Positions 14,047 through 30,592 of a stretch of DNA of 32,000 bases are shown piece after piece. Source of the DNA: Promethearchaeum syntrophicum (GTDB lineage: Archaea; Asgardarchaeota; Lokiarchaeia; Sigyniarchaeales; Promethearchaeaceae); assembly GCF_008000775.2 (NCBI RefSeq), contig NZ_CP042905.2:1860001-1892000 (forward strand), read 5' to 3'. Position 1 is the first letter of the stretch. Each line of letters begins with the position of its first letter. Made by a program: the position numbers and the translations under genes. The notes beneath the pieces are model-generated. The model worked only from the letters and a program-made list of their open reading frames with translations. It was not told where the DNA came from and did not search any database.

Positions 14047-14534
14047 TTTCTTTGGAAAAGTTGGAGGATAATTTATAATATCCTAGTAATGGGGATCTCA
14101 TTTGCAAATTTTCTGAGTAAACATAATGTATACTCTTTTTCCCTCCTAAGGTTATAAAAACCGTTCATCCATAATTAAATTACCTCTATTCGCTAAAAAA
14201 TGAGAATCTTGGGTGAGTAAAATTTTACATTCTAACAAAATTCGATTATAATCTAGATATATTTCAAACAATAGTGAGTTTTATAGTATTTCTATAATTA
14301 GAATTTCAATATTATTCTCTTCGATTTATAGTTTACGTAAGTTACACTGTGAATTGGAGAGAAATTTTGAAAAAGATCATCTATTGAATGGAATAATTCC
14401 AATCTATTCACATTGTAGAAATATTAAATGAAAGAATTGGAAATTCTATTAATTATTTATCCAATTTTAGATTATCTTTAATTAGCAGAAAAATACTTAT
14501 AAATCTTGTAGGATTACACTAAGATTACAAAATC

Positions 14535-15431
14535 CTACAAATAAAACTTAAAGTAATCATTTCTTAAGTAATATTTCAGAAACCAATTAATAAAAATCAT
14601 TTCATTATCTTGCAGATTACTCCTTTCCAGAGCAGTATAATAAGAGAATCTATCTTTATATCGAATATTTACCATAGGATAACCGTTTTTATACAAAATA
14701 TAATTCATAAGCATTCTTGAAACTCGTCCATTTCCATCAGCAAAGTTGTGAATTAGACCTACAATCTTATATTTGAATAATCCAGCGAGTAAAACAGGGT
14801 GATAGATCCGCTTTTTTGCATTATACCACTGAATAAGTTGTTTCATTAATACTTTTACGTTTTCGTGAGGAGGGAATTTTGCTTTACTATTTCTAATTGA
14901 AACATTTCCTTTTCTTAATTTTCCTGCAATATCTGATTTAGTTTCGCTAAATAATGATTTATGCAATTCTAAGATAAATTTCACCGAGATTTCTTTCTTT
15001 GAATCCAATAGGATATTGAAACTTTTCATGTGAAAATAAATTTCTAAACAGTCCTTAAAACTCCGTTTTACAGGTGAAATGTCCTCATCTAATAACATTT
15101 GGGTATCTCGATAAGATAATGTAGAACCTTCTATGCGATTCGAGTTAAATGTGAAATTTATACCAAACTTTCTTAATTCTTGCTTTTTTAATTCGGTTGG
15201 ATATGTTAAAAAATAGTCATATCCACTTTTAATCTTGCTAAAATCATCTTTGAATCTTTTTTCAATTATCTTATTATAAAACTCATCTTTCTTTTTATCC
15301 AATATTTCAAAGGGGGGTATTGTATCGTATCCAATTCCTTTTTCAATATGTTTTAAATGATTATTTTGTCGATATGAATAAACAAATGAATAATAATTTC
15401 TCTTATTTCTGACTCGTTTTAACATTTCCAT
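14535..15431 (-). CDS. Fic/DOC family protein (putative AMPylase) with an N-terminal inhibitory motif
   Basis: The Fic active-site motif HNFADGNGRVSR (HxFx[DE]GNGRxxR) lies at nt ~14715-14750. The SNRIEG match to [ST]xxxE[GN] lies at nt ~15126-15143. Confidence 0.85.
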   Translation of the reverse strand: MEMLKRVRNKRNYYSFVYSYRQNNHLKHIEKGIGYDTIPPFEILDKKKDEFYNKIIEKRFKDDFSKIKSGYDYFLTYPTELKKQELRKFGINFTFNSNRIEGSTLSYRDTQMLLDEDISPVKRSFKDCLEIYFHMKSFNILLDSKKEISVKFILELHKSLFSETKSDIAGKLRKGNVSIRNSKAKFPPHENVKVLMKQLIQWYNAKKRIYHPVLLAGLFKYKIVGLIHNFADGNGRVSRMLMNYILYKNGYPMVNIRYKDRFSYYTALERSNLQDNEMIFINWFLKYYLRNDYFKFYL

Positions 15432-15500
15432 ATCATATTAATAAATTTCAAATAAAAAACGTTTTTGCTATGGTAAAATGCGTTAAAATTGTTAAAAAAG

Positions 15501-16211
15501 TTATGATTTAACCTGCTTTAATCGTGTTTTGAAATATTTCATTATATTTCTCATAGCTTGTAATGTCATAAAATTGTTATATATTATATCTTCTTTTCTT
15601 AATTCATCATTTTTTAGAAAATAAGCAATTTCGTCTACTTTAGGTGAAATATTTTCTGGAATATCTTCCCATGCGTTATTTTCAAGAATTCTATTGATAT
15701 CTCCCCCAAACTCAATTATTTTTTCCAATTCTGATTTTGAATAATCGAAATATTTATCATCTGAATAATAACGTTTTAATTTCTCTTCAATTTCTGGATT
15801 TGAATTAAAACAATCATAATTCTTTATAAAATTCCAAATTTCTTGCCAAAATTCATCTTTGTAAAAGCCTAAATCATGATAATATGAAACAATACTAAAT
15901 ATATCAGGTTCTTCATTCATACAAGAATCTTTTATACATTGTATTGAGGATAGATTTAATAGATCCTCTTCCGAAATTGAATATCTTAGCATTTTTTCTA
16001 AATATTTGATTAATTCAATTCCTAATTCTTCTTCAAGTGGTTTGTATGTAGATTCGATTTTTTTATACATTTGAATTATTTCTAATTCTAAATCTTTCGA
16101 TACCATATTAGTTTCAAGTTTGTTATTAATATCAACTAATATCTCCCATTCTTCCATTTCGTTTAATTCGGTTAAAATATTCTTTCGTTTAAAATTTTCA
16201 ATTTGTGTCAT
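15501..16211 (-). CDS. Hypothetical protein
   Basis: 236-aa ORF co-oriented with its neighbours. No recognisable motif. Confidence 0.45.
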   Translation of the reverse strand: MTQIENFKRKNILTELNEMEEWEILVDINNKLETNMVSKDLELEIIQMYKKIESTYKPLEEELGIELIKYLEKMLRYSISEEDLLNLSSIQCIKDSCMNEEPDIFSIVSYYHDLGFYKDEFWQEIWNFIKNYDCFNSNPEIEEKLKRYYSDDKYFDYSKSELEKIIEFGGDINRILENNAWEDIPENISPKVDEIAYFLKNDELRKEDIIYNNFMTLQAMRNIMKYFKTRLKQVKS

Positions 16212-16229
16212 TTGCTTTCCCTTTCTGTT

Positions 16230-28671: not shown

Positions 28672-28770
28672 TAACGGATATTAGTCCTAATAGAAATAAA
28701 TAACTCCACTAATTTAAACTCAGCTATTTTTGAGCGATCTTTTAGTCGGATTTTGAAATATCATCAATTT

Positions 28771-28905
28771 CTGTCAACAATAACTCAATTATTGTTAACA
28801 ATAATCAATAAACCAAAATAAACCCCGACTTAAATTTCAAAACTCTGAAAAAAATAATTATTGTTAACTTTAATTCCTTCAAAACAATTAATGTTAACAA
28901 TAATT
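28771..28905. promoter_or_regulatory. Cluster of four TGTTAACA-centred palindromic operator-like sites
   Basis: A perfect 18-bp palindrome ATTATTGTTAACAATAAT lies at 28788-28805. A 20-bp near-palindrome AATTAATGTTAACAATAATT lies at 28886-28905. Half or variant sites lie at 28771-28784 (TGTCAACAATAA) and 28856-28868 (AATTATTGTTAAC). Confidence 0.55.
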
Positions 28906-29065
28906 CACTCAAAACACCCCCAAAATTTAGTACATTCCCTTGTAATCCATATAATGAAAATTATTAGTCTCCAAACATATATTTATTTGTTTTAATGGTT
29001 TCAAAATATGCAACAATTAGAAAAGTTTAATAAAAAATAGAAAAAAAGCAGGTAAAAAAGCAAGT

Positions 29066-30427
29066 TTAAAGTGTGCTTATGAATTTATTATACATTTCAG
29101 ACATTTGATTCATAGTTTCAAGCATTTCTGCTTTCATTTTTGCATACTCTTCTTTATTTTGGAGGTTTTCTGCTTTTATTTTAGCATTTTCTTCCTTATT
29201 CTCAGCATTTTCCTTTAAAATAATCTCATTCATTTTTTCTAATGAGGCAATCTTCTTAGCTTGGCTTGAAATAGTTTCATTAATACGTTCCATCTTAATA
29301 TTGGCTTCTTTGATATATTCACTTCGCCCTAAGATTAAAATTTTGGATTCAATATTCTCTTTATACCATTTCACAAACGATTCTTGCTCATGAGAAATTT
29401 GCTGATAAGCTCCAACTAACACTGCTGAATGTCCCATTGTGAGTTTAAACAGACCACTACTTTGAGTATCCAAATCTTTCGAGCCATTAGATTCATAATA
29501 CCTTCTTAAACTCTTTGGAGTAATATTTTTTAAATTTAAAACTTTGCAAGTTTCGAGTAATTGATCGTAAAAGAGGGTTCGTTTCATTTGTGAATAATTT
29601 TTTCCATATTTCTTATCTACCACAAACAACCATGAATTATCAGTTATTTTCTCACCTTTTCTCTCACGATCTTTAATATAGGTATGTAGAGAATCACAAG
29701 CTTCTGAACTAAAACAAGTTTGAAAAGGAAACTGAGTTTTTTGCCGATTACCTTCAATATAACAAATATTAAATTCTTTGAAATATCCCCTATTAAAATC
29801 TCTCATTTTCAAATTAAACAAATCTACATCATCTAAGCCTGAGCTAATTTTGCATAATAAGATTGTTTTATTCTTAACTGATTTTAATTGATTATAGATT
29901 TTTTTTAACCAATCTTTTCTCATTTCTGTTGAAATACGTGCATTATCATCGCCATTTCTCCACGTTTTTTCCCTTTTATTTTTTCGATCTTGAATTGCCT
30001 CTGATTTATTAAAAGTAACTGGTACACCATTTCTTTTATAAAAACTCGCAATTTTAGAGAATACATATTGTTTTGAGGCATTCCAACTCACTGTTTTAGG
30101 AATTACCTTATCATTAATGGTGTTTTTGTCGTTTTCACCCACTAAATAATAAAAAAATCCAAACATTTGTTTTTTAGTAATATCCGTTCGATTTATCGGC
30201 TCTGTTATTAAATCTGCATGGTGTTCGTTTATAAGAATTTCAGGTGTTTTCTCAAGAAAATCGCAATATTTCTTAAATACACCTACTCGTAATCGCTGAT
30301 CTTTTACTCCATCTAACCATTTGATGATATATTTATCTTTCATATATTTTTCAAGATCGATTCGTTTCTTGACAAAATTTTCATGAGCAATTTTTTTATC
30401 TTGTGCAGTTTCGTATTTTTTCCCCAT
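29066..30427 (-). CDS. Tyrosine-recombinase-like integrase with a C-terminal coiled-coil extension
   Basis: Box-II-like LTMGHSAVLVGAY (GH...Y), PKSLRRY (an HxLR-like motif with Arg) and IEGNRQKT are present. The C-terminal tail has a tandem 14-aa repeat, ENKEENAKIKAENL / QNKEEYAKMKAEML. Confidence 0.7.
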   Translation of the reverse strand: MGKKYETAQDKKIAHENFVKKRIDLEKYMKDKYIIKWLDGVKDQRLRVGVFKKYCDFLEKTPEILINEHHADLITEPINRTDITKKQMFGFFYYLVGENDKNTINDKVIPKTVSWNASKQYVFSKIASFYKRNGVPVTFNKSEAIQDRKNKREKTWRNGDDNARISTEMRKDWLKKIYNQLKSVKNKTILLCKISSGLDDVDLFNLKMRDFNRGYFKEFNICYIEGNRQKTQFPFQTCFSSEACDSLHTYIKDRERKGEKITDNSWLFVVDKKYGKNYSQMKRTLFYDQLLETCKVLNLKNITPKSLRRYYESNGSKDLDTQSSGLFKLTMGHSAVLVGAYQQISHEQESFVKWYKENIESKILILGRSEYIKEANIKMERINETISSQAKKIASLEKMNEIILKENAENKEENAKIKAENLQNKEEYAKMKAEMLETMNQMSEMYNKFISTL

Positions 30428-30592
30428 AATTATACTATAAAATTGTAAGTTTATAAAATTTACGGGAATTTAAGGCTTTTCTATAATAACATTTTGCTTT
30501 AACAAAATGTTGAAATTATTATAATATTCATTCCAGTTAATCCGAAAAATTTTTAGTTAGACAATTAAATGATCTATCTATTGGGGAATTAG

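Follow-up and report, generated by a model that had tools for sequence, protein, structure and literature searches.

A probable integrative plasmid-like element with a divergent tyrosine recombinase in the chromosome of Promethearchaeum syntrophicum

Archaeal integrative elements of the pNOB8 type (type II) keep their integrase gene intact beside attR, the right attachment site, are bounded by short direct repeats, and carry replication genes and cargo, such as defence or transport functions, with no virion genes. Many of them insert into tRNA genes or at the 3' ends of protein-coding genes. In Asgard archaea, few integrated elements have so far had their ends defined, and our literature search found no paper describing one for Promethearchaeum. 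Here, we analyzed a stretch of 32,000 nucleotides (hereafter the window), at positions 1,860,001-1,892,000 of the closed genome of Promethearchaeum syntrophicum (G000; contig NZ_CP042905.2; 4,324,194 bp, 31.1% GC). We consider it probable that window positions 7855-30490 form a single integrative plasmid-like mobile element of 22,636 bp, which is an element of an established type and not of a previously unseen kind. This reading is carried by a direct repeat that is restricted in the genome to the two ends, by the match between this repeat and a break of synteny, by the recombinase fold of the integrase, and by a sister element with a clean empty site in related genomes.

Two sets of described Asgard elements are relevant for comparison. 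The integrated mobile genetic elements (MGEs) of Atabeyarchaeia, such as the plasmid-like Yucahu-i, span 1.3-40 kb, encode mostly hypothetical genes, have a tyrosine integrase as end gene and an 11-bp AT-rich att motif, and have no tRNA target; a related plasmid is reported to carry a primase-helicase and a ribbon-helix-helix (RHH) regulator, and excision and circular forms of these MGEs were shown by reads (PMC11529989). Our element resembles Yucahu-i in being a small, ORFan-rich element of an Asgard host with an integrase at its end and short AT-rich att sites (14 instead of 11 bp). It differs in its host class (here Lokiarchaeia), in its unrelated set of genes, in an integrase family that lacks the first catalytic Arg, and in a replicase that is a DnaG-type primase fusion. 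While reads show circular forms of those MGEs, our element is known here from its integrated sequence alone. The second case is Fylgjavirus 1 of Lokiarchaeum ossiferum B36, a particle-forming provirus of 16.1 kb with genes for a packaging ATPase and a double-jelly-roll capsid protein (bioRxiv 10.64898/2026.02.13.705702). It and our element both lie at a non-tRNA intergenic site of a Lokiarchaeial chromosome, are similar in size, and have a tyrosine-recombinase-like gene, but neither type of virion protein was found in our element. With the type II elements it shares the intact integrase gene by attR, the flanking repeats, the cargo, and the absence of detected virion genes. In contrast to them, its target is an intergenic promoter region, its catalytic signature is a different one, and its primase is of the bacterial or phage type, where the type II comparison has an archaeo-eukaryotic primase or MCM.

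Ends of the element and its chromosomal site

A preliminary description, made from the letters of the window, had proposed an integrated, integrase-bearing plasmid-like element of about 16 kb, with the integrase at its right edge and a left border around 14047. The mobile nature of this DNA was borne out, but the unit bounded by repeats starts further left, at 7855, and takes in a plus-strand operon of ABC-transporter genes in addition to the minus-strand block. The repeat was located by comparing the spacer on the integrase side with all sequence to its left. The flanks were compared with three metagenome-assembled genomes (MAGs) of the same genus (G001, G002, and G003, titled 'MAG: Promethearchaeum sp.'), which are 74-89% complete. 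The features that define the ends are the following:

7841..7854, plus strand: attL core, the left copy of the 14-nt direct repeat TTTTCTATAATAAC; exact repeat, homology to the MAGs stops at 7853/7854
7855..8443, no strand: non-coding left arm (P' side), beginning GCAACTTAAACTTAAG; no open reading frame (ORF), no DNA match in the three MAGs
29066..30427, minus strand: 453-aa integrase with tyrosine-recombinase fold and coiled-coil tail (homologues with PF00589, structural model, Foldseek, profile alignment to XerA)
30428..30476, no strand: P arm and integrase promoter region, ending TTTAAGGC just before the core
30477..30490, plus strand: attR core, the right copy of TTTTCTATAATAAC, 49 nt upstream of the integrase start; host ATTTTG follows

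The repeat has exactly two occurrences in the genome (4.32 Mb, both strands), which are identical, in the same orientation, and 22.6 kb apart. Its left copy falls on a break of synteny. Across the ferredoxin-type operon (5040-7854) the window is 88-93% identical to the three MAGs, and DNA homology to their contigs (G001:C12, G002:C180, and G003:C272) breaks off at 7853/7854. Beyond this point the MAGs read ...ATAATAA(C/T)ATTTTG, and in the window ATTTTG follows the right copy of the repeat, not the left one. This pattern corresponds to B-O-P' for attL, P-O-B' for attR, and B-O-B' for attB. Since the genome contains further copies of 14-mers from the 165-nt spacer between the integrase and PfkB genes at a rate of 7.2e-6 per base, the probability of a copy ending at most 2 nt from an independently defined breakpoint is around 4e-5. 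From 7855 to 30566, nothing beyond short fragments matches the DNA of the MAGs, and in the comparison with their empty site the left flank and the core match, together with the first 6 nt to the right of the core. A weak additional feature is the presence in the left arm of CTTAAA, the inverse of the TTTAAG preceding the attR core.

The attL junction and the integrase-PfkB region recur with 100% identity in an independent Logan assembly (DRR199588). Two of its contigs (_165 and _372) both stop around 8418-8422, at the A-run before the first gene of the element and 560 nt inside attL, each with ~28 unmatched terminal bases. These shared ends are probably an assembly artefact.

The site is intergenic, in the promoter region upstream of the ferredoxin-type operon, and is not a tRNA gene; the preliminary description had seen no tRNA target, and there is no tRNA gene anywhere in the window. 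The genes on the two sides of the minus-strand block had both been taken for host housekeeping genes. This holds on the right, where the PfkB operon (window 30491-32000, continuing to G000 1895722) is host DNA, present in G002 (82% identical), G011, and G012, and syntenic in two other genera. It does not hold for the ABC ATPases on the left, which are accessory genes inside the inserted DNA.

In our model, the circular form would carry an attP reading ...AATTTAAGGC-TTTTCTATAATAAC-GCAACTTAAAC..., and the element's own integrase (29066-30427) would have recombined the 14-bp core with an identical or near-identical site in the chromosome. Integration would have duplicated the core at both ends (7841-7854 and 30477-30490) and left the integrase gene intact, 49 nt inside the right end. 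The predicted junctions are TTTACGGGAATTTAAGGC-TTTTCTATAATAAC-GCAACTTAAACTTAAG for attP and GAGTTTACCAATCTTT-TTTTCTATAATAAC-ATTTTGCTTTAACAAAATG for attB.

The minus-strand block is itself uniform in strand. It comprises 17 ORFs of 68-1254 aa between 14535 and 30427, all intact and, as first described, all on one strand, and an ORF scan found no credible plus-strand gene in this interval. Three junctions overlap by 1-4 nt (18342/18345, 18707, and 19138), so that such overlaps exist but the 'many' of the preliminary description was generous; there is also one overlap of 32 nt and two gaps of 1-2 nt. The GC content of the block is 28.3%, against 24.4% in the ABC part (the 0.3rd percentile of the genome), the whole element being at 27.1%, the 2.4th percentile among genome windows of the same size. 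The uniform strand and the difference in GC would also fit a mobile unit made of just this ~16-kb block, with a left end in 14047-14534. The ABC operon would then be an older island or host DNA, and the repeat copy at 7841 the product of another event or a coincidence. Two more observations go in this direction: the ABC operon moves independently, as it is syntenic in G013 (GCA_021498095.1) with no integrase within 20 kb, and a match to 11 of the 14 core positions lies at 14288-14301. However, around 0.3 such matches are expected by chance in that spacer and this one lacks flanking P/P' arm sequences, and we rejected it as a third, internal copy of the core dividing the element in two. Between 14047-14534 and the integrase end, no repeat rises above chance. 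The best alignment of this spacer with 30428-30592 scores 12.0, equal to the mean of dinucleotide shuffles (12.0), 246 of 500 of which were as good, and the att pair proposed earlier (14371-14394 and 30567-30590) is at chance level, scoring below that best local alignment. Furthermore, the exact copy of the core ends right at the synteny break, at 7854, and the ABC operon, like the block, is not found in the three MAGs. The shorter unit is in our opinion improbable, and we retain the 22,636-bp element.

A sister element and the integrase family

The integrase has a single paralogue in the genome, 68% identical, which belongs to a sister element. There, copies of TTTTCTTCATAAAA at G000 964060-964073 and 978320-978333 surround an insert of 14,260 bp. 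Homology of its surroundings to the three MAGs sets in again 51 nt before the start codon of this integrase gene, and all three are contiguous across the site with one copy of TTTTCTTCATAAAA, which makes it a clean, scar-free empty site. The core of the sister lies 50 nt upstream of its integrase gene and is preceded by TTTAAGG, with TTTAAGGTG in place of the TTTAAGGC of the window. Its rebuilt attP is a perfect 10-6-10 palindrome, AAGGTGTTTT-CTTCAT-AAAACACCTT, which implies that the 14-nt repeat represents 4 + 6 + 4 nt of a classical recombinase core. Its cargo includes an MmeI-like restriction-modification gene. The two elements have in common a 14-nt core with a TTTT start (TTTTCT in the window), its position 49-50 nt upstream of the integrase gene, the TTTAAGG directly before it, and an intergenic target. 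They differ in their cores, and the integrase gene is the sole sequence that they share; only the sister combines an attP that is a perfect 10-6-10 palindrome with an empty site that is complete in relatives. The sister element confirms the design of the element in the window.

The integrase itself has no Pfam or PHROG match, being below the Pfam threshold, though the earlier assignment of this gene was upheld by its predicted structure. A model computed from an alignment of 28 homologues (predicted local distance difference test, pLDDT, 87.5) has the two-domain recombinase fold, and Foldseek matches it to XerA 5hxy (E 7e-8), IntI 2a3v, Tn1549 Int, lambda Int, and Cre. We found 70 homologues in contigs of Promethearchaeota, Lokiarchaeota, and Heimdallarchaeota, most of which carry PF00589. 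The ORF is whole, with the core 49 nt in front of its start codon. This sets the element apart from the SSV type (type I), in which attP is located within the integrase gene and integration splits the gene.

The canonical catalytic set Arg-Lys-His-Arg-His/Trp-Tyr is incomplete in this protein. In a profile alignment to XerA 4a8e, Asp199 falls on Arg I and Lys305 on His II, with Lys230, Arg308, His333, and Tyr341 retained. The Asp is invariant in the 28 aligned homologues (32-67% identity), all of which retain the residues corresponding to Arg308, His333, and Tyr341. To our knowledge, the first catalytic Arg is present in all characterised tyrosine recombinases. Such a pattern resembles a conserved, functional design more than decay, and the family could be a distinct catalytic variant of the tyrosine recombinases. 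In its members, the Asp is part of a motif SSGLDDVD, Arg228 in the beta-hairpin is invariant, and the C-terminus forms a long coiled coil.

The integrase is matched in 2 of the 31 related genomes, counting G000 itself, with two loci in G000 and one in G013. The presumed ABC permease has homologues in 2 of the 30 relatives (3 of 31 with G000). Conserved synteny across relatives or membership in core families, which the preliminary description had named as grounds for abandoning its reading, were not found among these genomes, and the element is likewise not found in the three MAGs of the genus. In other Lokiarchaeial contigs, homologous integrases are always found where host genes give way to ORFans and read inwards, and the adjoining replication genes encode a 1272-aa DnaG-type protein (GCA_021498095.1), a D5_N/DUF5906 protein, or TFIIB. 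A search for repeats at the ends of these homologous elements (the G013 locus, over 40 kb, and loci L048 and L049) gave none above chance, and no relatives of the family were found in IMG/VR viral contigs. At the G013 locus (C1, ~3848230), the spacer upstream of the integrase has a ~44-nt sequence that occurs at more than 20 places in that genome.

Several findings weigh against an integrative element with these ends. On the right, sequence shared with the empty site of the relatives ends as little as 6 nt beyond the core, the window then running into the PfkB operon, and no single relative shows the empty site in full. Unlike that of the sister, the attP as rebuilt lacks a clean palindrome, its right half-site being degenerate. 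The attP junction was not found in JGI metagenome contigs, and exact-protein look-ups with PfkB, the integrase, and left-flank genes, aimed at an empty site in the same strain, returned only the DRR199588 contigs, where the element is integrated. Moreover, G003 lacks the PfkB operon at this place, its ferredoxin-operon flank joining G000 1,895,700 after ~95 nt, and the PfkB operon of G002 sits elsewhere, preceded by a fragment homologous to G000 1,707,440-1,707,823. These displacements imply that the locus has been rearranged more than once, so that the att site is a chromosomal spot of repeated rearrangement within the genus. The unit may also be composite, considering the GC of the ABC part and the integrase-free occurrence of the syntenic five-gene ABC set in G013. 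Finally, the Asp at the position of the first catalytic Arg across the family makes its recombinase activity putative.

This last point raises the question of whether the locus is a fixed, immobile remnant or accessory island, whose Arg-less integrase is inactive or otherwise employed. The family-wide Asp199 and Lys305 substitutions, the asymmetry of the rebuilt attP, and the integrated state in the sole other assembly found (DRR199588) are all compatible with it. Yet the Asp is invariant across 28 homologues that keep Arg308, His333, and Tyr341, the attP of the sister is perfect and its site in relatives empty and scar-free, and in the window all ORFs are intact and the two copies of the core identical. 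We regard an immobile remnant as unlikely, though a serious competitor of the mobile element that we favor.

One may go further and propose that the element and its sister are members of a live family of integrative plasmids, whose recombinases work without the canonical first Arg (with Asp in its place, and Lys for the second-box His) on 14-bp 4+6+4 cores, the window element replicating by a DnaG primase/P-loop fusion. This proposal is tentative, and we would not yet bet on it. If true, the integrase (Int453) with its attP and attB would be a ready site-specific integration system for a cultured Asgard archaeon, and the recombinase superfamily would gain a new catalytic variant. Genetic tools, which are lacking in Asgard archaea, usually begin with an integrase that works and whose attP and attB are known. 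Two sisters with differing cores also provide matched integrase/att pairs, with which target reading by this unusual family becomes testable.

Replication genes and class of the element

The part of the minus-strand block next to the integrase contains the putative replication module:

28680..28904, no strand: GTTAAC-centred palindromes (repeat families D4 and D6), operator-like, between the integrase and the replication operon
28456..28671, minus strand: 71-aa protein, first gene of the replication operon, RHH-like by pattern only (YHLEARI...PELIVSLKK...RTVEMLLRKYL)
26994..28287, minus strand: three ORFans (215, 134, and 68 aa) that precede the primase gene in its operon; no family matches
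23228..26992, minus strand: 1254-aa replication protein with a zinc-ribbon and Toprim primase (residues ~83-440) and an orphan C-terminal half with the Walker A motif GAQKTGKS
20889..23227, no strand: 2.3-kb non-coding region with iterons by the 3' end of the primase gene, candidate replication origin
20193..20888, minus strand: 231-aa protein with a coiled coil and a C-terminal winged helix-turn-helix (wHTH); HTH_IclR E 5e-4, phrog_2440 'transcriptional regulator' E 9e-6

The preliminary description of the 1254-aa protein as a primase-helicase stands for its first half. This matches PF01807 (CHC2 zinc ribbon, E 8e-7) and PF13155 (Toprim, E 6e-5), which makes it a DnaG-type primase, and its N-terminal 450 aa are 40% identical to the 1272-aa protein beside the homologous integrase of GCA_021498095.1. 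The helicase assignment failed. The second half matches no helicase family in Pfam in any of the four members, and hhalign against the D5/VapE-like proteins of related contigs gives a probability of 39%. The model of the C-terminal 695 aa (residues 560-1254, window 23228-25315), based on four sequences, is unusable (pLDDT 42), and this part has only 2 homologues in a set of 5.8 billion proteins. One of the two, homologous over nearly the whole primase, is encoded on a 33-kb contig of ORFans only (logan SRR27370451_7015), and no relatives of the primase were found in IMG/VR viral contigs.

The 2.3-kb region has no credible ORF on either strand. It contains three 19-nt iterons with a spacing of 21 nt (22343-22403) and GTAACC-containing repeats at 22691-23101, and Rfam matched nothing in it or in the rest of the window. 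The free element would replicate from this iteron-rich region using the 1254-aa DnaG-type primase/P-loop protein, and the small DNA-binding proteins would control the replication operon through the GTTAAC palindromes. For these regulators the earlier assignments fared unequally. That of the wHTH protein is confirmed by its family matches, while the two proteins called RHH-like have no Pfam match, the 71-aa one not even at E 1, and fit by sequence pattern alone.

The location of the primase gene beside an iteron-rich non-coding region makes a plasmid-like reading the best one: the candidate replicon features are the DnaG-type zinc ribbon, the Toprim domain, and the iterons next to the gene. Other classes of elements fit less well. 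An integrative conjugative element would have transfer ATPases of the VirB4/VirD4 type and genes for a mating pore, whereas the P-loop proteins here are limited to the primase and two canonical ATPases of ABC transporters. A casposon would have a Cas1 integrase and terminal inverted repeats, whereas no Cas1 was found in the family searches and the ends are direct repeats. A provirus deserves more attention. Most ORFs of the element are orphans, and the 16.1-kb provirus of Lokiarchaeum ossiferum B36, with its tyrosine-recombinase-like gene and non-tRNA site (bioRxiv 10.64898/2026.02.13.705702), shows that temperate Asgard viruses integrate at such places. Capsid and packaging genes might then be too divergent to be recognised. 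However, in line with the preliminary description, sequence-based searches found no PHROG or Pfam match to capsid, portal, terminase, or other structural or packaging families among the element's proteins. Walker A motifs are confined to the two ABC ATPases and the C-terminal part of the primase, which leaves no spare packaging ATPase. A hydropathy scan revealed no protein with a hydrophobic segment in the minus-strand block, and so no small membrane proteins there; only the primase, the integrase, and the permease exceed 300 aa; and, as mentioned above, IMG/VR lacks relatives of the primase and the integrase. A provirus is for us a very improbable alternative to the integrative plasmid-like element. 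A crude CRISPR search of the genome returned coding tandem repeats only, and there were accordingly no spacers to compare.

Cargo genes, ORFans, and related replicons

The remaining genes are the plus-strand ABC operon and the distal part of the minus-strand block:

8444-8995, plus strand: 183-aa protein with an N-terminal signal-like hydrophobic segment (hydropathy); no family match
9143-9964, plus strand: 273-aa protein with N- and C-terminal hydrophobic segments (hydropathy); no family match
9966..12665, plus strand: 899-aa polytopic membrane protein, presumed ABC-exporter permease, with nine hydrophobic segments in two clusters and large loops between them
12672-13382 and 13369-14046, plus strand: two ABC-transporter ATPases (PF00005, E 2e-27 and 3e-30)
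14535..15431, minus strand: Fic-domain protein with its own inhibitory motif (PF02661 E 3e-16; PADLOC PDC-S04 and SoFic)
15501..16997, minus strand: two acidic ORFans (236 and 255 aa); nothing in Pfam, PHROGs, or PADLOC
17188..19905, minus strand: operon of seven small ORFs (139, 136, 115, 121, 143, 153, and 69 aa); no family matches

The Fic protein had been recognised from the start, and its translation has the canonical motif HNFADGNGRVSR together with the inhibitory SNRIEG; it is probably an AMP-transferase. Two more Fic paralogues are encoded in the genome, at G000:C1:2296894-2297769 (59% identical) and 109621-110457 (37%). The nearest NCBIfam models of the ABC ATPases are of the LolD, FtsE, and bacteriocin-export types, all under the curated cut-offs, and their best match in relatives is 45% identical. 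In G013, the 183-aa and 273-aa genes have counterparts of 25-32% identity that are in synteny with the ABC genes. The Fic gene and the five-gene ABC exporter operon would be the cargo of the element, the lower-GC ABC operon having probably been picked up secondarily. In this case an MGE would have delivered a complete ABC exporter and a Fic enzyme to its host.

The gene content is that of a modular pool of mobile-element genes. The 69-aa protein of the seven-gene operon has an RHH pattern by eye only, and the 139-aa one has a 58%-identical homologue on G003:C185, adjoining a 34%-identical homologue of the wHTH protein. On the same contig (positions 1-10917), these two genes are near a UDG-family gene and a gene for a VapE/DUF5906 protein of at least 920 aa; the contig is probably another replicon of the same gene pool. 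A 29-nt stretch beside the iterons (22413-22441) is also 97% identical to it. In P. syntrophicum itself, the region G000:C1:3294500-3295480 contains short fragments resembling the 153-aa ORF, the 215-aa ORF at its C-terminus, and the primase at its N-terminus, with their order kept, and probably represents a third related element that has decayed to a remnant. As for the left flank, window 5040-7854 is a block of ~40% GC that encodes a 455-aa multi-4Fe-4S protein, and G001 and G002 have a second, 69%-identical copy of it.

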